DNA from: a virus
Taxonomy: Duplodnaviria > Caudoviricetes
IMG/VR virus record: IMGVR_UViG_3300042691_024284
Coordinates: 759-64,758 of that record
Reading direction: 5' to 3' (one strand)
DNA length: 64,000 bases
Positions 12,926-51,221 of the stretch are shown here, piece after piece (position 1 is the first letter of the stretch; each line of letters starts with the position of its first letter). The position numbers and the translations under genes are program-made. A model generated the notes under the pieces. The model saw only the letters and a list, made by a program, of their open reading frames with translations. It did not search any database and was not told where the DNA came from.

Positions 12926-14155
12926 TTAATATCCTTCTGTCCAATAAAGGAGTACGGCTCCGTCGCCGCCTTTGCCGCTATTTATTGATGCTGAACTATC
13001 ACTTCGTTGACCAGCACCGCCGCCACCGCCATTCCCACCGGGTCCCCCGAACGGTGTCGAGCTTGAAACTTGAGCGCCGCCACCGCCACCGCCAAAACCA
13101 CCCGGACCACCAAATGTTTGAGCGTTACTAGTATTAGCGCCGCCGCCACCACCACCAAAACCGCCTGGGCCTCCAAATGCAAAATTGCTGCTGCTTTGTG
13201 CCCCGCCTCCGCCGCCGCCAAAACCACCAGAACCGCCGTTAGAATCAAACGATGTGCTTGGTCCTCCGCCGCCACCACCTCCACACAATGCCCAATACGC
13301 AAGGTAAGGAGATGCAAGACTTAACCCTCCTTGCGTACTAGTTGCTACAGGGACGCTTTGACCGCCGCTAGTTCCCACAAAATTTGTTGTTACTCCGCCT
13401 CCTGGTCCACCACCATTTCGACCATTGCCATCGCTTGCTGATCCACCACCACCGCCCGCACTCGAAGCAGATCCATTTTTTAACCCGCCTCCACCTGAAC
13501 CGCTTGGCCCTTGAGGCCCAAAACCGCCGCTACCACCAAAACCACCCCCACCCGTTCCGTTTTGGCTAGTTGAAGTAGATCCTGCGGGTCCGCCATTTCC
13601 CCCATTACCATAAATAGACCCCGCTCCTCCGCCGCCAGTACCTCTGATATCTGAACCAGAGCTGCTTGAATACCCACCGTAACCGCCAGTAGCGGTATAG
13701 GCTTGCCGAAGCCCTCCAGATGCTGTGCCTGTACCGGGACTTCCGGGTGAAGTACTGTTAGTTATTGACCCACCGCCGCCGCCGGTAGAAGTTAAGAGAG
13801 TGCCAAATGATGATGTTCCGCCAGAAGCTCCAGAAGATTGAGTGCTAACTCGTGCTGCTCCTCCAGCGCCAACAGTAATTGTCGGCAACACCTGCCCTGG
13901 AACTACATCAATAATGCCTTGAGCGTAACCACCGCCATCACCCCCGCGAGCATATTGACCAGAATAACTACTACCAGCACCGCCAGATCCACCAGCACCC
14001 CAAACGCAAACCATAATTTGATACACGTTTGCTGGAACAACAAAGTCGTTATACGTACCCGCAATAACATACGGGCGGCAATTAGTCCAAGCAGCAGGCG
14101 CTACACGGGTTGCATAGTTAGGCGGCAACCCAAAGCCGTACATTCCCTTGTTCAT
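12926..14155 (-). CDS. Glycine-rich fibre protein
   Basis: VWGAGGSGG, ITVGAGG, repeated GGFGGGGGG, C-terminal GGDGAVLLYW. Confidence 0.7.
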   Translation of the reverse strand: MNKGMYGFGLPPNYATRVAPAAWTNCRPYVIAGTYNDFVVPANVYQIMVCVWGAGGSGGAGSSYSGQYARGGDGGGYAQGIIDVVPGQVLPTITVGAGGAARVSTQSSGASGGTSSFGTLLTSTGGGGGSITNSTSPGSPGTGTASGGLRQAYTATGGYGGYSSSSGSDIRGTGGGGAGSIYGNGGNGGPAGSTSTSQNGTGGGGFGGSGGFGPQGPSGSGGGGLKNGSASSAGGGGGSASDGNGRNGGGPGGGVTTNFVGTSGGQSVPVATSTQGGLSLASPYLAYWALCGGGGGGGPSTSFDSNGGSGGFGGGGGGAQSSSNFAFGGPGGFGGGGGGANTSNAQTFGGPGGFGGGGGGAQVSSSTPFGGPGGNGGGGGAGQRSDSSASINSGKGGDGAVLLYWTEGY

Positions 14156-32724: not shown

Positions 32725-34164
32725 CTACTGAGCGTACGGGTTGTAGCGTTGCTTGCTGCGATCATCTGCGTAGTCATAGTCGCGCGCTGGCAGCGGATCA
32801 AGCTGTATCCACCCCGAGTCACGCAGCACGCGCAGCGCTTGGGACAGGCTGTCCACGTAGTCATCGTGTCCCCCAGACTCGGGAAACGCACAGACCTGGC
32901 GCAGAAAACGTTTGGCCCACTCGGCGTACTCGCCGTCCTTTTTGGCATCCTCCGGTATGTACACCTTGCCCTTTGCTATGAGAGGCGCCACGATGTTGAT
33001 ACGCTGCACCTTGTCCGCTCTACCAGGGTTGTACGCCCTGACCGGCACGCCGGCACCTTGCAGCTCCTGGATGAGCGAGATACCAGCCGACTTATCCTCC
33101 ATCAGAATCAAGTCCGCCTTTCTGCCTTTGGCAAACGTGTTATCCGCGCCGTACACAACCTCTTTAAAGTCGTTGATTACCTTTTTGCGCAGCTCCGGAT
33201 ATGACAGGTGCGCGTCCCATGCGTCTAGCAAGATGATGCACGTGCCCTTGTCCTGGTTCTCAAACACGCCCCACACCTCACAGGCTGTCGGGTCGTTGTG
33301 TGTCTTCTCGCTGGTAGCCGGGTCGTATGACGCAATCACATACTCCAGCGTTGGCGTTTCCTTTTTGGACGGCCACATCTTAAACCACTTGCGCTTTACA
33401 ATCCCCGCGTCCTCCGGGTTTAGGATCTCGCCATAGATCTCCTGCTTACCCAGGTCTGTGCCTTCGTACGTCTCAAGCTGCTTGAAAAACGTCGCTGACA
33501 GGTTTTGACGGTTATCATAAGACGACGCGTTCACCATGTACACGTCGCCCCCGACCTTCCCTTCAGCCAGATCGACAATTAACTCCTTTGGCTTAGGCGT
33601 AGTGGTTATGATCTGCTGCACCCGGGCTATGTTTGGGTGCTTTAAGCGCAGGGTGAACTGCACTTGATCGTACGCATCGTCGATGTACTCGAATGCGCAC
33701 AGCTCATCAAACCAGGCCCCGTGAAACTGCTTGCCTCGATACCGCTCTGGCTCAGAGCCGGGTATGCCCTGGATGATAGAGCCGTTGATTAGCGTCACCT
33801 CAAAGAGCGATTTGTTGTAGTCCTGGATTAACGAGTGCGGGATGATGTTAAGCAATCCCGAGTCACCCTCAAAACACGTCGCCCGGATGTCATTTGACGT
33901 CGGCGCTGTCACTAACCACCTCGTTTGCGCGTTTTTCCACGCCCGAATCCCAATCCAGTGGCTTGCGGTGTGCGTTTTGCCTGATCCGCGGCCGGCAAGC
34001 ATCAAAAACGTGTCATATTCGCCGCCGTCCGGCTCTCTTTGGTGTCCCAAAGCGCTTAATTCCCATCTAACCTGCCACAAAGCCGCGTCTAGCTGCGGTT
34101 TTGGCCAGTGTTTGTTGTTCTTCGCAAAATCCGCCAGGATTTTTTCTTGCTTTTTGCTCAACAT
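32725..34164 (-). CDS. terL: Terminase large subunit
   Basis: Walker A AGRGSGKT, Walker B WFDE, TTTP coupling motif; nuclease motifs SYDPA, EDKSAG and HDDYVDS. Confidence 0.95.
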   Translation of the reverse strand: MLSKKQEKILADFAKNNKHWPKPQLDAALWQVRWELSALGHQREPDGGEYDTFLMLAGRGSGKTHTASHWIGIRAWKNAQTRWLVTAPTSNDIRATCFEGDSGLLNIIPHSLIQDYNKSLFEVTLINGSIIQGIPGSEPERYRGKQFHGAWFDELCAFEYIDDAYDQVQFTLRLKHPNIARVQQIITTTPKPKELIVDLAEGKVGGDVYMVNASSYDNRQNLSATFFKQLETYEGTDLGKQEIYGEILNPEDAGIVKRKWFKMWPSKKETPTLEYVIASYDPATSEKTHNDPTACEVWGVFENQDKGTCIILLDAWDAHLSYPELRKKVINDFKEVVYGADNTFAKGRKADLILMEDKSAGISLIQELQGAGVPVRAYNPGRADKVQRINIVAPLIAKGKVYIPEDAKKDGEYAEWAKRFLRQVCAFPESGGHDDYVDSLSQALRVLRDSGWIQLDPLPARDYDYADDRSKQRYNPYAQ

Positions 34165-35120
34165 ATTGAGATAAATCCCTCACTTGCCAGAAAAGGCCGG
34201 TCCGCAATGACATGAACGCACTGCTTAGGGTCGATTTTCTTGATTTTTCGTATGTATCTGCGCTTTAAGCGCCCGTTTTTGTCATCTAACCTGAACGCCA
34301 GCTTGTAGTTTGACGTATTCTCAGGCAAATACAGCATCGTCTTACACCCAAACGACTCAACCAGCGCCTGGTAGCGCCTGATTGTGGGGTAGTGCGCGTC
34401 GTAGATGCAGTATTTTTTGTACTCCTCGTCCCATCTGACGTACGAGTTGGCATCAATTAGCCCCTCGAGCAACTCCCTTCGCTGTTCCGGTGAGCTCTCG
34501 ATGTAACTAAACGGCAGCGTCGTTGGGATGTCGGCCCCAGCAAACAAAAACGTGTCCTTAATCGACGGCCGAAACTCAAACATCAGTTTGCGGTGTCTGG
34601 ATCTGCCCACCTTTATAAAAAACCCGTGCCGCCTGCAGCGCTTCCTAACCTTCTCCACATCCATCTTACCTACCAGGTTTAGGCCCGACGGTCGCAGTGA
34701 GCCTAACCACACACCCATCACGTAGGGCGGCACCGGCAGATCCTTCCATGTGTAACGCAGCGGCTCGCACACTTGTATGGACCAAGTCTTAGGCTCGCCC
34801 TTAACCAGCTCATCGACAGCCAGGATCTTTGGCTGCGATCTCAGCGGTTTGGAATACTTTTTGCCGCGGTTCTTCACCCACCTCGACAGATTGTCTCTAT
34901 ACGTCTTGTCTTGTAGCGGGAGCGTCATGTGCGCATCACCTACCAGGTCCAGCCCATCGTCGAACGCCACCTGATAGCACGCGCTCGGTATGTACTGCTG
35001 CACCGATCTCACCGGCTGGGCGCAGCCCTCTTGGTCAAAAACTAGATCACCAGGGCGTAGATCGATTGCCCGTCGCCAGCCATCAAGCGTTGGTATTGGC
35101 GTCGTTGCTGCTAGGCCCAT
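34158..35120 (-). CDS. Free-standing degenerate intein-like protein (Hint plus LAGLIDADG remnant)
   Basis: L..TTPIPT.DGW...DL.PGDLVF...G, LPVPPY.MG.WLG, S.EQRRELLEGLID and block F-like C-terminus; lacks the terminal His-Asn. Confidence 0.75.
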   Translation of the reverse strand: MGLAATTPIPTLDGWRRAIDLRPGDLVFDQEGCAQPVRSVQQYIPSACYQVAFDDGLDLVGDAHMTLPLQDKTYRDNLSRWVKNRGKKYSKPLRSQPKILAVDELVKGEPKTWSIQVCEPLRYTWKDLPVPPYVMGVWLGSLRPSGLNLVGKMDVEKVRKRCRRHGFFIKVGRSRHRKLMFEFRPSIKDTFLFAGADIPTTLPFSYIESSPEQRRELLEGLIDANSYVRWDEEYKKYCIYDAHYPTIRRYQALVESFGCKTMLYLPENTSNYKLAFRLDDKNGRLKRRYIRKIKKIDPKQCVHVIADRPFLASEGFISIC

Positions 35121-35352: not shown

Positions 35353-35573
35353 GCTGTCAAGGGTTGCGGGGGTTGCTGGGGTCTAAACCAGGTCCGTCTC
35401 TCTTTTTGTTTTTTCTTTTTTCTAAAAAAAAATAAAAGTGAAATAGACCCCAGCAACCCCCGCAACCCTTGACAGCAGAAAAATTTTATCAACAAAATCA
35501 ACAACTTACAAAAACGCGGTATAGAGAAAAATGACCCTTATACCCTTGACACGACCCCGGCAACCCTTGACAA
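35353..35573. repeat. Origin-like element, copy L: perfect 33-bp inverted repeat around a 58-bp AT-rich spacer, IHF site and third iteron block
   Basis: Arms at 35353-35385 and 35444-35476; WATCAANNNNTTR at 35496-35508; block at 35542-35573; inverted homolog at 43201-43419. Confidence 0.9.
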
Positions 35574-36164: not shown

Positions 36165-36193
36165 GCGCTCCGGATCCGGCAGGCATAAAAAGT

Positions 36194-36216
36194 ACCCTGA
36201 AAAAACCAGTATAGTG
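36194..36216 (+). promoter_or_regulatory. Early promoter-like repeat ACCCTGAAAAAACCAGTAYARTG, copy 1
   Basis: 3 copies (36194, 37053, 38563), each ending in a -10-like hexamer upstream of a gene or RNA. Confidence 0.7.
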
Positions 36217-36243
36217 AGACCATTACATATAGGAGATCTCACC

Positions 36244-36994: not shown

Positions 36995-37046
36995 GCATCA
37001 CTGATGAGGCCTGAATGGCCGAAACCCCGGCGACGGGGTCTGATGC
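36995..37046 (+). ncRNA. Type I hammerhead ribozyme HH1
   Basis: GCATCA-CTGATGA-GGCC(TGAAT)GGCC-GAAA-CCCCG(GCGA)CGGGG-TC-TGATGC. Confidence 0.92.
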
Positions 37047-37052
37047 AAAACC

Positions 37053-37075
37053 ACCCTGAAAAAACCAGTACAATG
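37053..37075 (+). promoter_or_regulatory. Early promoter-like repeat, copy 2
   Basis: -10-like TACAAT. Confidence 0.7.
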
Positions 37076-37101
37076 CAACACCACAACACGGAGAAAACAC
37101 C

Positions 37102-37460: not shown

Positions 37461-37511
37461 CATCACTGATGAGGCCTAAGTGGCCGAAACCCCGGCGACG
37501 GGGTCTGATGC
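37460..37511 (+). ncRNA. Type I hammerhead ribozyme HH2
   Basis: Same core as HH1; loop II is TAAGT. Confidence 0.92.
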
Positions 37512-37534: not shown

Positions 37535-37741
37535 ATGCAAAACTGGCAATTAATAGATGCAAACAATAGCCCGGTAGCTATCGGCGACGCTATCGTTTCA
37601 TTTCGCGGCGAGCAGGCCACACTCAAGGGCTGCAGCCCTCCGCAACATGCGGGATCTACTGGCAGGGTTTACGTAGGCGGAGGAGAGTATTATCCGTCCG
37701 TGTACGGTTTGAAATGGGTCAGCATCACTGACGAGGCCTGA
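37535..37741 (+). CDS. Small early protein
   Basis: Repeated RBS leader; stop codon lies inside HH3. Confidence 0.65.
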   Translation: MQNWQLIDANNSPVAIGDAIVSFRGEQATLKGCSPPQHAGSTGRVYVGGGEYYPSVYGLKWVSITDEA

Positions 37742-37773
37742 ATGGCCGAAACCCCGGCGACGGGGTCTGATGC
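37722..37773 (+). ncRNA. Type I hammerhead ribozyme HH3
   Basis: Core CTGACGA (variable position 7 = C); stems intact. Confidence 0.92.
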
Positions 37774-37796
37774 ATATAACACGGAGAAAACACACC

Positions 37797-38588
37797 ATGA
37801 CAACAGAAAACGCACAATGGGCAGCGCTGCTGTCCGACGCTGTCAACAAACCCGGCATTCTGTCGAGCGCCTACTCGGCATTCCATAATTACAGCATCGG
37901 GAATCAGATGCTGGCTTGGGGTCAGCTACACCAGCGAGGAATTCCGCTCGGGCCAATTGCCACATTCAAAGACTGGCAAAAACTCGGCCGGCAAGTGAAA
38001 AAAGGCGAAAAGGCCATTTCTCTTGTCATGCCAGTGACAGTGAACAAAAAAGACGAGACCGGCGAAAAGACGGGCGACTCGTTTACATGGTTTGCGCTCA
38101 AACCCCGCTGGTTTGTGCTCAGCCAGACAGACGGCACTGACTACGTACACGAGGCCAAGACGCCAGACTGGGACCCTGCGCTGGCACTGGCAGCGCTCGA
38201 CATTCAGGAAATTCCATTCGAGAGCGCCGACGGCAATTGTCAGGGCTATGCATCATCGCGGCAGATTGCAGTTAATCCAATTGCTGCACTGCCGCATAAA
38301 ACGCGATTCCATGAGCTAGCGCACGTCGTGCTCGGCCACACTGCCGAGGGCACGATGCAAGACGACGAGCGCACGCCGCGGGACATTCGCGAAGTCGAGG
38401 CAGAGTGCGTCGCCTACATTTGTGTGTCCCTGCTGGGCTTGTCCGGACAGCAAGAGTCGCGCGGGTATATCCAGCACTGGCTAGCTGGCGCCGAGATCGG
38501 CGACAAATCAGCGCAGAAAATATTCGCCGCCGCGGACAAGATTCTGAAAGCTGGCAAAAACCACCCTGAAAAAACCAGTACAGTGTAA
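37797..38588 (+). CDS. ArdC-like antirestriction protein (ssDNA-binding N-domain plus HExxH domain)
   Basis: HNYS.GNQ.L, ATF..W..LGRQVKKGEKAI, FHELAH and E.EAE.VAY motifs. Confidence 0.8.
   Translation: MTTENAQWAALLSDAVNKPGILSSAYSAFHNYSIGNQMLAWGQLHQRGIPLGPIATFKDWQKLGRQVKKGEKAISLVMPVTVNKKDETGEKTGDSFTWFALKPRWFVLSQTDGTDYVHEAKTPDWDPALALAALDIQEIPFESADGNCQGYASSRQIAVNPIAALPHKTRFHELAHVVLGHTAEGTMQDDERTPRDIREVEAECVAYICVSLLGLSGQQESRGYIQHWLAGAEIGDKSAQKIFAAADKILKAGKNHPEKTSTV
38563..38585 (+). promoter_or_regulatory. Early promoter-like repeat, copy 3
   Basis: -10-like TACAGT about 11 nt before the structured RNA. Confidence 0.65.
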
Positions 38589-38595
38589 CGATCAC

Positions 38596-38705
38596 GGAGG
38601 CGGGGAAGTGCAGCCCAGAGAACGTGGATCACGGCATGGACTAATAACCTCCATGCTGCCACGGACGGGCAGGATCGGGAGCTAGCTGCCCGCCCGCCTC
38701 CACCA
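38596..38705 (+). ncRNA. Unknown 110-nt hairpin RNA ending in ACCA, copy 1
   Basis: GGAGGCGGG/CCCGCCTCC closing stem followed by ACCA; inner stems GCAGC/GCTGC, CGTGG/CCACG and CGGCATGGA/TCCATGCTG. Confidence 0.65.
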
Positions 38706-38726
38706 CCACAACACGGAGAAAACACC

Positions 38727-38999
38727 ATGCAAAAAACATTCTACTTCATCACAGACCCCGGCCACGGCTGGGTCAAAGTGCCGGTCAATTTGCTGCATAC
38801 ACTCGGCATCGCCGACAAAATCTCGCTGTACTCGTACCAGCGCGGCGACTTTGCGTATCTCGAAGAGGATCAAGACGCCTCGCTGTTTCATCGCGCGTTT
38901 TTCGATAAGTACAACAGATTTCCGGTGTATCGGGAGCAAAACAGCATGCACAAATACTCGCGTGTTCGCGGGTATGACATCTACAGGAGCACACCATGA
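38727..38999 (+). CDS. Early hypothetical protein
   Basis: DPGHGW.KV and YLEED.D motifs; repeated RBS. Confidence 0.7.
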   Translation: MQKTFYFITDPGHGWVKVPVNLLHTLGIADKISLYSYQRGDFAYLEEDQDASLFHRAFFDKYNRFPVYREQNSMHKYSRVRGYDIYRSTP

Positions 39000-40341
39000 A
39001 TAAGACAATCAACGACATATTCGACAAATACTTTGCCGACTGCGAGGCCGGCTACATGGAGGCAGAGCGCCGGCGCCTCGAGCGCGCCCGGCGCCGCGCA
39101 GAGCATGATAAAAATCTGCATAGCTGCGGGTTTCCTCCGCCTGCCGTTATCGATCTAGGCTATACCGACTACGCTAAAGACAGCGCCGCCGGTCTCAATA
39201 CAGACTAACCACAGGAGCACACCATGAGTAAGTACACCATGCACCCCTGCCGTGACGTCGGCGGGGGTGAAATCGAGCGCTGCGAGGCTTGCGAGGCCGA
39301 CATGTTCACGATCTATCGCATCGAAGCAGACGGGACCGAGACAGCCCACATCGACTACGAGTTTGAGGATTCAGTCGAGATGGTGTCTCAGTGGGCAAAC
39401 GCAACGCGCGAGCTAGAGCGCCTAAACAGGAGCACAGCATGACAACACAGGCAGAACAACCAAAAGTTCATCTACAGGGCATCAAGATCAAGGCCAAGAT
39501 CAATCTTACGGCTGACGATTGGCAGCTCTACTCCATACCCGGCCGAGATACGGCAGCACGCCGGATGAACCGGGCCATGGAGCGCAAGCTTGCCAAGGGA
39601 GAGCTAGGATCTCTGCTGGACATTCTTGAGCCATACAGCAAGTGGGGCGCCTGCGATAGCGAAAGCTATCACACCGTCTACGCTGTGCTTCGCCGGCTGG
39701 GTTTGGACGACGAGAAATTTGCGTAAAACCCCCGGCGATTCACCATATATTTGATAACGACAGGAGCACACCATGAAAGAAATAAAACCAGACCCCTACA
39801 TTCGCATGCTGGGCATGCCCGCCGAAGATCTGCGACAGCAGATCGCGCATAGACTGGAGTCGGGCGAGGATCTAATAATGATCATCGCCTCGACATTGTC
39901 CGACGCGCAGGAGCTAGTGCAGATGCGGGATCAAACCCGCGCTCTGCAGGCCATTAATCGGGCCAAATGGATTTTGTTTGAAAACAAAGAGGAGACAACG
40001 CTATGACAGTGCAATCATTCTGGAACAACGACAGCGACATGCAAGACGTCGCGGACGAGCTATCCAGTCTTGTGCCGGCCATGGGGCCAGTGCCCGATCC
40101 GCGCAAGAACAAGGCGCTCGAGCGCTTCCGTCGCGCGAGCAATTGCTACTATGACCTGTACAACAACGGGCTGGACAATCGCCGGCAAGAGTTTTATAGG
40201 TTATTCAAAATCCGCGTGAGCGACTTTTATAAACGCGGCCGTCGTCGTGACATCGACTTTGACAGGATCATGCCAGTCGTCGAGCCGGTCATGCGACAGT
40301 TTGTGCTGGATGCTGCAGCCGAGCAGGGCATCGAGCAATGA
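38996..40341 (+). other. Cluster of five small early ORFs (38996-39208, 39224-39442, 39439-39726, 39773-40006, 40003-40341)
   Basis: Tightly packed; most have the ACAGGAGCACA(C/G)CATG leader. Confidence 0.7.
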
Positions 40342-40346
40342 TCAAC

Positions 40347-40458
40347 GGAGGCGGGAAAGTGTGGCCTATGACGGTCCGGACAGCGGCGCAGGCATCAAAC
40401 CCTGCGTTGAAACCCCGGCCGGGGCGTAACGGGAATCACTGCCCCCCTGCCTCCACCA
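40347..40458 (+). ncRNA. Unknown 112-nt hairpin RNA ending in ACCA, copy 2
   Basis: GGAGGCGGG/CCTGCCTCC stem followed by ACCA; AGTG/CACT and CGGCGCAGG/CCTGCGTTG stems. Confidence 0.65.
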
Positions 40459-40471
40459 ACACTAAAAAAAG

Positions 40472-41360
40472 ATGACTAAAAAGACAGCAAAAAAGCTCGA
40501 AGACAGCCTGCAGCAGCTTTACGCAGAGCAGGAAGCCCTCGAGGCTACGATGGACCCGTGGAACCGGGAAACGGCCGTAAAGTGGCAGCAGCTTGAAAAC
40601 AAAATCCGCCAGCTTACGATGCAAATTGACATACTTCACATGAAAGAGGCACAGCATGAAAGTGATTCTGACCGTCTGTTATAACCCCGACATCGAGCAC
40701 GACGGCGACGAGGGTAAAAGCTTGATCGAGTTTTATTATCCGCCGCACATCAAAGACGCGCTCATCGAGTTGCTGGGTGCAACAAGCATCAAGGCTGAGG
40801 CCGTCTCAAGCCAGGAAGAGGAGGAGTAACCATGCCGGCAATCATTACAATCGAGCAGTCGGGCCACGAGTTGTGGGTCACAGGCGACGACAGCGCGCAG
40901 CATGCCGACTTCGAGGAGCAGATGTACACGCTGCCGTACTACGGCGAGGCAGTGCTTGCGAAAGATGCAGCACACGAGTATGCTATCGCATGGGCCGCGG
41001 CAGTCGGCGGCACCGTTGAATATAAATAAAGGAGTTACACCATGGCAACCAACACCATAACCACAAAAGAGGGCAGCAGCGTGTACATGACAGCGCACGA
41101 AGCTGGCATGCTCTTGGCTGTGTTTTCGGAAAATGTATCGCTCACACTCACATTCAAAGAGCAGGACGCGCGAGCTCTAGCAGAGCGTATAATTAACGCG
41201 CTGGACAATTTTAAATTAACCACAATCAAGGAGTAACACCATGAAACGAATTAACGTGCCAACCGAAGAGCTACTCGGTATAATCGAGTGGCTGGATGCG
41301 CTAAACGCTACGATCCACAGCATTGAAGATGATCGCGGCGGCAGCGACAGCTGGCTGATA
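40472..41360 (+). other. Cluster of small early ORFs (40472-40684, 40656-40829, 40832-41029, 41042-41236, 41241-41360)
   Basis: Most preceded by AGGAG-type RBS; tightly packed. Confidence 0.6.
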
Positions 41361-43202: not shown

Positions 43203-43419
43203 GTCAGGGGTTGCCGGGGTCGTGTCAGGGGTAGAGACGCGATTTTCCATATACTACCCCCTTTGCAACCCATTGATTTAATTGAAGAAAAAATTTGCTG
43301 TCAAGGGTTGCGGGGGTAGCGGGGGTCTATTTCACTTTTATTTTTTATTTTGAAAAAAGAAAAATAAATTTAAGAGGGAAGTACGTTTAGACCCCAGCAA
43401 CCCCCGCAACCCTTGACAG
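43201..43419. repeat. Origin-like element, copy R (inverted relative to 35353-35573)
   Basis: Block at 43201-43232; IHF site 43266-43278 (minus); arms at 43297-43329 and 43388-43419 around a 58-bp AT-rich spacer; abuts the primase gene. Confidence 0.9.
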
Positions 43420-51140: not shown

Positions 51141-51221
51141 GGGGTTGGAATAGTTTCGACGTGGGCCAAGGCCTAAGCGGCAACCTTGCGGACCTGGGTG
51201 CGATTCCCAGCAACTCCACCA
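51141..51221 (+). ncRNA. Minimal tmRNA-like RNA (tRNA-like domain only)
   Basis: GGGGTTG/CAACTCC-ACCA with G3.U70; TTTCGAC loop; GAC linker; T-arm CTGGG-TGCGATT-CCCAG. Confidence 0.8.

Follow-up and report, generated by a model that had tools for sequence, protein, structure and literature searches.

CCA-tailed structured RNA cassettes between early genes of an uncultured freshwater phage, a candidate RNase P processing module

The DNA analyzed here (the window) is a stretch of 64,000 nt from an uncultured freshwater tailed phage and comprises bases 759-64758 of the IMG/VR record IMGVR_UViG_3300042691_024284, which is 64,758 bp long and has direct terminal repeats; relatives in the clade are about 65 kb. 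Up to about 35.1 kb the genes for structure and packaging are found on the minus strand. Beyond this point the plus strand carries the early and replication genes, in the context of a polycistronic early operon, and they include those for an ArdC-like anti-restriction protein, a sigma-like factor, a primase, an SNF2 helicase, a DUF2800 nuclease, an Enc34-type SSB, RNR, and PolA. Two short RNA elements with a CCA tail, here called cassettes, are found in this block. Copy 1 (38596..38705, plus strand, 110 nt) is located directly after the ArdC-like gene, in the intergenic slot between the plus-strand open reading frames (ORFs) 37770..38588 and 38727..38999; copy 2 (40347..40458, plus strand, 112 nt) lies between ORFs 40003..40341 and 40472..40684, also in an intergenic slot. 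Sequence comparison confirmed the cassettes as members of a real structured RNA family that are paralogous, intergenic, and sense to the early genes.

An initial annotation of the window, made from the letters alone, had placed two paralogous elements at 38596-38705 and 40347-40458, and both were found there. The common 5' motif GGAGGCGGGRAAGTG has exactly two perfect matches in the window, at 38596 and 40347; only these two were counted because a third match needs three mismatches, a level at which chance gives 2.83. The common 3' motif CTGCCCSCCYGCCTCCACCA has two matches where 0.01 is expected, and none of 100 shuffles reached two. Both copies also contain the CGGGA near the 3' end and the apical stem beginning with CGGC that had been described for them. 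When folding was compared with that of shuffled sequence, z was -3.57 for copy 1 and -2.68 for copy 2, with a predicted fold energy of about -53 kcal/mol. The covariance model described below scores copy 1 at 75.4 bits (E 9.4e-13) and copy 2 at 123.3 bits.

All members of the family have the architecture of a three-way junction. The terminal stem P1 (9 bp) is followed by an unpaired ACCA. Its 5' strand leads into an 8-nt junction with an invariant AAGUG and then into a long irregular arm with P2 (4 bp) at its base, P3, which varies, in the middle, and P4 (8-9 bp, loop of 8-9 nt) at its apex; after another short junction comes the P5 hairpin (4 bp; CGGG, loop, CCCG), and its 3' strand continues into the P1 3' strand without a spacer. 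In copy 1 the P1 5' strand GGAGGCGGG (38596..38604) pairs with 38693-38701, and the long arm (38613..38670) consists of P2 (GCCC/GGGC, 38613-38616 with 38667-38670), P3 (38623-38627 with 38659-38663), and a 9-bp P4 (38632-38640 with 38650-38658) that closes the 9-nt loop CUAAUAACC. P5 (38676..38692; CGGG, a 9-nt loop, CCCG) directly abuts the P1 3' strand (38693-38701), and the single-stranded ACCA occupies 38702-38705. Copy 2 has a 5' leader, GATCAAC (40340..40346), that overlaps the TGA stop codon of ORF 40003-40341. Its P1 5' strand (40347..40355) pairs with 40446-40454, the seventh pair being G.U, and its long arm (40364..40425) is made up of P2 (GCCU/GGGC, 40364-40367 with 40422-40425), P3 (40372-40379 with 40415-40421), and a 9-bp P4 (40384-40392 with 40401-40409) closing the 8-nt loop CAUCAAAC. 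P5 (40430-40433 with 40442-40445), the P1 3' strand (40446-40454), and ACCA (40455-40458) complete the element; all these features are on the plus strand. Because P5 adjoins P1 without a spacer, the two helices can stack into 13 bp, and the secondary structure thus predicts a helix similar to the stacked acceptor and T arms of tRNA.

Compensatory base changes back P1, the base and the apical stem of the long arm, and P5. A covariance model (CM R1) was constructed from seven sequences with the fold of the copy-2 subtype imposed, and the pairings in its alignment (seven distinct rows, 227 cells, 33 pairs) were counted and compared with 500 column shuffles. Standard pairs fill 88.1% of the 227 cells, against 79.0 +/- 1.3 in the shuffles (0/500 reach this value), and 13 of the 33 pairs are changed on both sides, against 6.9 +/- 1.8 (0/500). 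When the 3' partners were slid by 1-3 columns the pairing fell to 44-53%. P1 is paired in all seven sequences, with three of nine pairs changed on both sides and one change from G-C to G.U; its variants are GGAGGCGGG/CCCGCCUCC, GGGAGAGGG/CCCUCUCCC, and GGGGGCGGG/CCCGCCCCC. P1 is also supported on plain MAFFT alignments, including one of four sequences. The interior predicted by RNAalifold is partly spurious and unreliable since MAFFT misaligns the long arm (P2 by one column and P4 by two). Double changes were found at six of nine P4 pairs across the family. The outer pair of P5, which abuts P1, is C-G in four sequences, U-A in two, and C.C in one, and P2 GCCU/GGGC of copy 2 becomes GCUU/AAGC in the related contig G001, with a one-sided intermediate in another contig, L222.

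The unpaired positions are more strictly kept. ACCA, G1, G2, and C(-1) are identical in 7/7 sequences, and the junction bases AAGUG, GGGA, and CUG are invariant while the helices have drifted. The six or seven bases upstream of G1 are nearly invariant as well (GAUCAC, GAUCAAC, or GACCAAC in 7/7) and overlap or follow the upstream stop codon; similarity stops right after CCA, and the bases that follow differ between members. Judged from these sequences, the invariant ACCA and C(-1)/G1 form the pattern that would be expected if the 3' RCCA and the -1/+1 bond were functional. A pseudoknot between AGUG of the 5' junction and CACU of the 3' hairpin loop was considered and rejected; it can form in the copy-2 subtype only and is not kept in the copy-1 subtype. 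A reading of the apical loops as tRNA-like anticodon loops was also rejected, as the loops are 8-9 nt long and not conserved.

Pattern scans of IMG/VR found the seven distinct sequences in six virus contigs of one clade. The window has two copies and G001 (IMGVR_UViG_3300031857_000156, 64 kb) has one, as whole-record searches of both agree; L094 (IMGVR_UViG_3300032092_002775) has one copy, which is identical in a 65.6-kb metagenome contig, and contigs L123, L221, and L222 have one each. The same kind of scan returned 49 stretches from metagenome contigs, of which only two have the terminal stem (both repeats of known sequences), and 45 stretches from one genome per prokaryote species (bacteria and archaea), none with the terminal stem. 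Diverged members would be missed by these scans, which require exact motifs. The covariance model detected no further member at E<=5 in 85 sources (1.18 Mb, including 78 primase-relative loci), and in 73 loci of the two small neighbor genes discussed below (0.35 Mb) it gave nothing further except three matches at E 2.4-4.3, which were taken as noise. A nhmmer search over the related loci returned known members only, and blastn of 38000-41000 against the INPHARED phages gave no match. No Rfam 15 family matches at E<=10 when a 3-kb stretch is searched; stretches of 146 nt gave only matches at E>1, far below gathering scores. Thus homologs exist and show compensatory changes, and Rfam holds no match, so that the proposal of a new RNA family made in the initial annotation stands on both counts. 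In the open literature no description of a CCA-tailed cassette family was found, subscription journals and supplements being outside the search. On sequence evidence the family appears to be narrow in distribution and new to RNA databases, with a function that we infer.

Every member has the same orientation as the genes around it. The cassette begins 5-8 nt past the preceding stop codon, and 8-25 nt separate its end from the following ribosome-binding site or ATG. They occupy two types of site, one upstream of homologs of ORF 38727-38999 (copy 1, G001, L094) and the other downstream of homologs of ORF 40003-40341 (copy 2, L221, L222). G001 has a single copy at the copy-1 site whose interior is 90% like copy 2, a hybrid, and its copy-2 site is empty, with 17 nt between the two genes. 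Population variants were examined by comparing contigs of four public sequencing runs over 38300-41000. All four runs contain a relative that cleanly lacks copy 1, with joints from 38582-38588 to 38704-38705; four to seven other letters lie between the joints in three of the four runs. One run has a deletion between the two copies, and one lacks ORF 40003-40341 and copy 2 together. A sequence ending in ...CCCCACCA was seen in one run just upstream of ORF 40003, which gives only a hint of a third cassette site since no more than 30 letters are visible. The early region as a whole is mosaic, with gene-sized indels at common leaders and with short leaders common to several genes, so that ordinary recombination suffices and no mechanism of transposition is needed.

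A fixed link to a neighboring protein was considered for gene A (ORF 38727-38999) and gene B (the second small neighbor gene) and was rejected, since neither consistently adjoins the RNA. The cassette stands beside the gene at one of 11 gene-A loci and two of 62 gene-B loci, and most relatives of either gene are without it. Gene A has 247 relatives, all unnamed and none with a Pfam domain, and library scans assigned gene B to no protein family. Other structured RNAs were noticed at the gene-A site. In the more distant phages L229 (217-280, plus strand), L230, and L231, a Y-shaped RNA of about 62 nt, with an 8-bp terminal stem followed by AACCA, lies directly before the homolog of ORF 38727-38999 and is different from the cassette family; in L224 a long hairpin (z -5.2) precedes the gene A homolog instead. 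Gene A thus seems to draw structured leaders. L224 also has, at 1264-1326 on the minus strand, a 63-nt element with a 9-bp terminal stem and then ACCA, a weak match to the covariance model through its ends only (18.6 bits, E 0.052), which is probably an unrelated CCA-tailed RNA or a small tRNA-like gene.

The hammerheads mentioned in the initial annotation proved to be real in a structural scan that required the CUGAYGA core, stem II, GAAA, stem III with A15.1-U16.1, a UH cleavage site, and stem I. Three canonical type-I hammerheads were found on the plus strand of the window, at 36996-37045 (repeat family D1), at 37461-37510, with a predicted cut 24 nt before the ATG of the next ORF, and at 37723-37772, just before the ArdC-like gene. 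All three have a GUC cleavage site, and stem III is closed by A-U. In total 22 hammerheads were found in 8 of 82 related sources, and comparison of the copies shows covariation in stems I and III. All but two have their predicted cut 20-28 nt ahead of the next ATG; in these two, the first hammerhead of the window and one in L094, a repeat motif, D4, comes first. Rfam gathering thresholds miss the three hammerheads; the second gave a weak match to RAGATH-1-hammerhead (26.7 bits, E 0.15), below the gathering score. Downstream of the hammerhead cut comes a leader (..ACAACACGGAG..ATG) that is also found after the CCA of copy 1 and of the cassettes in L094, L123, and G001. Cassettes and hammerheads therefore occupy equivalent intercistronic slots in the same operon.

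The D4 repeat (30-40 nt, core ACCCUGAAAAAACCAGUA) has three plus-strand copies in the window, at 36187-36226, 37046-37085, and 38556-38595; the motif stands about 30 nt ahead of start codons here and in the related contigs L028, L094, and L100. Its third copy overlaps the last codons of the ArdC-like gene, and the last six bases of that copy, GATCAC (38590-38595), are the 5' leader of the cassette; in the window and G001 the cassette lies between D4 and the ribosome-binding site of gene A. Copy 1 had been thought to follow an early promoter. This could not be confirmed: a sigma-70 scan gave no promoter-like site beside either copy, and what stands there is the D4 repeat, which is the element that had been called the early promoter. 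D4 itself was rejected as a sigma-70 promoter, with no promoter-like site in the scan and no properly spaced -35/-10 pair by eye; it may be an RNA element or a promoter of a kind specific to the phage.

We give roughly an even chance to a model in which the cassette is an intercistronic processing module that depends on host RNase P and releases a stable CCA-tailed RNA. In this model, where transcription, RNase P cleavage, 3' trimming, stability, and the role of the released RNA are what we infer, the cassette would be transcribed on the sense strand within the polycistronic early operon. Host RNase P would recognize the 13-bp stack and the RCCA and cleave the C(-1)/G(+1) bond, which lies a few bases past the upstream stop codon, and host 3' processing would then shorten the RNA as far as the encoded CCA. 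The upstream cistron would be parted from the downstream one, the downstream mRNA would keep a short standard leader, and a stable CCA-tailed RNA of about 110 nt would be released. The cassette would then be the host-enzyme-dependent counterpart of the self-cleaving hammerheads at neighboring junctions, and its long arm, in which structure is kept and sequence is free, would stand in the place of the D and anticodon arms. What is directly observed is the covarying fold, the strand and position of the elements, the invariant ACCA, the cassette-like presence and absence, and the equivalence of slots with the hammerheads.

We favor RNase P processing, the second option of the initial annotation, on grounds of anatomy, because cassettes and hammerheads lie in equivalent slots and are followed by the same leader. 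The elements that make an RNase P substrate, namely G(+1):C(+72), a 3' RCCA, and a coaxial stack of about 12 bp with a loop, are all present in the cassettes, the stack being a predicted one of 13 bp. Substrates other than tRNA precursors are on record: RNase P cleaves phage M3 RNA, the C4 RNA of phages P1 and P7, pre-4.5S RNA, pre-tmRNA, and operon mRNAs, as stated in PMC11143913. Among the 76 ORFs of the window that were scanned, none encodes RNase P, a CCA-adding enzyme, an RNA ligase, or an aminoacyl-tRNA synthetase, so the phage would rely on the tRNA-processing enzymes of its host. If RNase P does cut at the cassettes, this clade would punctuate one early operon in two interchangeable ways, with hammerheads and with tRNA-like modules served by a host enzyme. 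It would then offer a small, naturally occurring setting in which to study the reasons for early message cutting by phages and to compare 5'-OH ends with RNase P-made ends in their effect on mRNA fate.

Several points weigh against RNase P processing. A minihelix of about 35 nt would suffice as a processing signal, yet an arm of about 55 nt is kept by compensatory change; the kept arm, with its six covarying P4 pairs, hints at a function beyond being cut. The P5 loop has 8-9 nt and lacks the T-loop consensus, the stack is 13 bp rather than 12, and C at -1 is not the preferred leader base of RNase P. The covariation comes from only about three independent lineages among the seven sequences, and the pair counts lean towards the fold because the alignment was fitted to a structure derived from the same sequences. 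Finally, the family is tiny and dispensable, and since relatives and population variants do without the cassette its role would be accessory.

The fact that the long arm is kept though unnecessary for cleavage leaves room for the alternative in which the released RNA itself matters. It might act in trans as a decoy or sponge that occupies a host factor recognizing tRNA acceptor ends, such as EF-Tu, an enzyme that modifies or repairs tRNA, or an abortive-infection toxin directed at CCA, or its variable loops might make it an antisense regulator. We consider this unlikely overall but the most serious of the alternatives. The compensatory changes uphold an arm of free sequence that exceeds what a cleavage signal needs; the cassettes are in an early mosaic accessory region, right after an ArdC-like gene, with the presence/absence polymorphism typical of counter-defense loci; and the same phage carries a tmRNA relative reduced to the tRNA-like domain. 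Toxins that modify the CCA end of tRNA and inspect the acceptor stem have been tied to anti-phage immunity (10.1101/2024.07.05.602228). On the other hand, the loops differ between the two subtypes, and the antisense action of variable loops proposed in the initial annotation has found no target in the phage. A search of the 64-kb window for sequence complementary to the apical loops, to the 5' junction, or to the loops of the 3' hairpin returned the elements themselves and a few sites with one mismatch, and no such site lies on a sense mRNA close to a start codon. The cassettes have no linked partner protein, given the few gene-A and gene-B loci that have the RNA, and no such decoy was found in the open literature. 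As the 3:70 and other acceptor pairs vary (A-U, G-C), no single tRNA identity appears to be mimicked. The more specific proposal, that the ~110-nt RNAs are anti-defense decoys, i.e., acceptor-arm mimics made early that soak up abortive-infection enzymes such as CCA-pyrophosphorylating toxSAS or nucleotidyltransferase toxins and whose subtypes are swapped as hosts change, is in our view rather improbable.

The cassette might alternatively act in cis without being cut, as a stable structure that guards the upstream 3' end or the downstream 5' end or insulates translation, with the ACCA incidental or reinforcing. The tight position between a stop codon and the next ribosome-binding site fits this idea, as do the place of the cassette in the 5' leader between D4 and the gene A ribosome-binding site (window and G001) and the other structured elements at the same place before gene A homologs (L224, L229-231). 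It leaves unexplained, however, both the strict invariance of the unpaired ACCA and the junction bases and the three-way architecture itself, and we regard it as improbable, though a little less so than the anti-defense proposal. A new class of self-cleaving ribozyme that does the job of the hammerheads is more doubtful still. Searches in the neighborhood of known ribozymes in phage-like DNA have led to several ribozyme classes, and the cassettes share the slot and the downstream leader of the hammerheads and possess a three-way junction with invariant unpaired bases. But no Rfam ribozyme family matches them even weakly, no candidate cleavage site is evident, and an invariant ACCA after a G-C-closed stem is what RNase P reads, with self-cleavage unnecessary.

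Two further explanations are very improbable. The first is a small protein gene. One such frame, 40338-40475, has 45 codons; it begins with an ATG that overlaps the TGA upstream and ends in a TGA that overlaps the following ATG. The frame is open through copy 2, L221, and L222 (with an ATG overlapping the stop codon) and through L094 and L123 (GTG), and two changes between copy 2 and L221 in P4 are synonymous in it. However, the same frame has a stop codon within copy 1, in G001 the upstream stop is not overlapped by a start codon and the C-terminal frame is shifted by an indel of 1 nt, and the peptide interior is unrelated between the subtypes while the base pairs are kept; by our own estimate a 40-codon open frame arises by chance with a frequency of about 0.4 at about 67% GC. 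The second, equally remote, places the function at the DNA level, in a recombination site or in a miniature mobile element whose terminal inverted repeats would be the 9-bp stem, with the RNA fold as a by-product. It would account for the sharp-bordered empty sites in contigs of 4/4 runs, the deletion between copies, the hybrid copy in G001, and the CCA-ended sequence at a third site in one population. But no transposase or integrase is linked to the cassettes, the covariation of P2, P4, and P5 and the 14 G.U cells on the plus strand are not explained by inverted repeats in DNA, and the orientation is always sense to the genes; in a mosaic region with gene-sized indels at common leaders, ordinary recombination is enough.

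Some other features of the window were noticed in passing. Long inverted and direct repeats with CCCTTGACA boxes lie at 35353-35475 and 43297-43419, on either side of the early block; they probably act as strong early promoters of divergent orientation inside a large repeat able to form a hairpin. The large terminase is split over two adjacent ORFs (32725-35120, minus strand), the upstream of which (34158-35120) also has a LAGLIDADG-like domain; this arrangement suggests a homing endonuclease or an intein-type insertion. ARAGORN called a 92-nt tRNA-Ser with anticodon ACT at 13634-13725 (minus strand), inside the 409-codon ORF 12926-14155, most likely a false positive.

In comparison with known RNAs, the cassettes are not tRNA, tmRNA, C4 RNA, 4.5S RNA, or a known ribozyme. 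ARAGORN finds no tRNA at either site, and the Rfam models of tRNA and tRNA-Sec give no match at E<=10. The stem closed by GG...CC, one unpaired A, and then CCA are acceptor-like in 7/7 sequences, but the stem has 9 bp against 7 in tRNA, and the cassettes have neither a 7-nt anticodon loop nor a T arm of 5 bp with 7 nt, their 3' hairpin having a 4-bp stem and an 8-9-nt loop. With the tRNA-like domain of tmRNA they share the order of acceptor stem, junction, long helix in place of the anticodon arm, 3' hairpin, acceptor 3' strand, and ACCA; unlike it, they lack G3:U70 (position 3:70 is A-U in three sequences and G-C in four) and a T-loop (their loops are 8-9 nt), and the 9-bp stem again compares with 7. 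A 107-nt RNA of the L008 type has the same acceptor ends together with a canonical T arm, but it scores only 8.4 bits (E 7.8) with the cassette covariance model and, judged by sequence, this look-alike is not homologous to the family. The tmRNA model RF00023 matches the window only at 51141-51221, not at the cassettes. This plus-strand element, the tmRNA relative referred to above, is 81 nt long and matches the ends of the model only, with 53.3 bits against a gathering score of 47. G3:U70, a T arm, and ACCA are present in its tRNA-like domain, the tag-coding and pseudoknot parts are missing, and it begins immediately behind the stop codon of a short ORF that is rich in lysine and has a signal peptide. 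It is also present in L028 (17221-17301) and L100 (17936-18016), and three other relatives have a DUF2815 RNA instead. It could be a decoy of SmpB or alanyl-tRNA synthetase, or another RNase P punctuation site.

Among phage RNAs, the CI RNA of phage P4 is a further non-tRNA substrate of RNase P, and the C4 family is present in Rfam; the C4 model gives no match to the cassettes at E<=10, nor does that of bacterial signal recognition particle (4.5S) RNA, a domain IV motif model. Like the C4 antisense RNA of phages P1 and P7 and the M3 RNA of phi80 (PMC11143913), which are small non-tRNA phage RNAs with a 5' end made by host RNase P and a stem ending in an RCCA-like sequence, the cassettes are small and CCA-ended. 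They differ in having no sequence or covariance-model similarity to these RNAs, in their three-way junction, 13-bp stack, and long arm, and in lying between cistrons rather than in a dedicated regulatory gene, with no antisense target in the phage. Rfam models of hammerhead, twister, twister-sister, pistol, hatchet, and HDV-like ribozymes match neither cassette. Clustered hammerheads flank prophage genes, e.g., around the anti-restriction gene ardA, and Perreault et al. (2011, PMC3088659) suggested that long phage transcripts are divided by them into mRNAs of gene length. The cassettes resemble these clusters in their genomic niche and presumed purpose, the cutting of transcripts around anti-restriction genes, but they have no hammerhead core and would need a host enzyme. 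RNase P reportedly also cuts within bacterial operon mRNAs (Li and Altman, 2003; Alifano, 1994). Plant mitochondrial t-elements (PMC1920247) and the mascRNA of MALAT1 (PMC8457004) are tRNA-like processing signals inside longer transcripts. In these cases, as proposed for the cassette, a tRNA-shaped module recruits tRNA-processing enzymes to set mRNA ends; they belong to organelles, eukaryotes, and host operons, whereas the cassette is an accessory phage module with an encoded CCA that occurs alongside ribozymes. By analogy, the cassettes would most likely be handled like the phage and cellular non-tRNA substrates of RNase P and like the tRNA-like punctuation elements of organelles.

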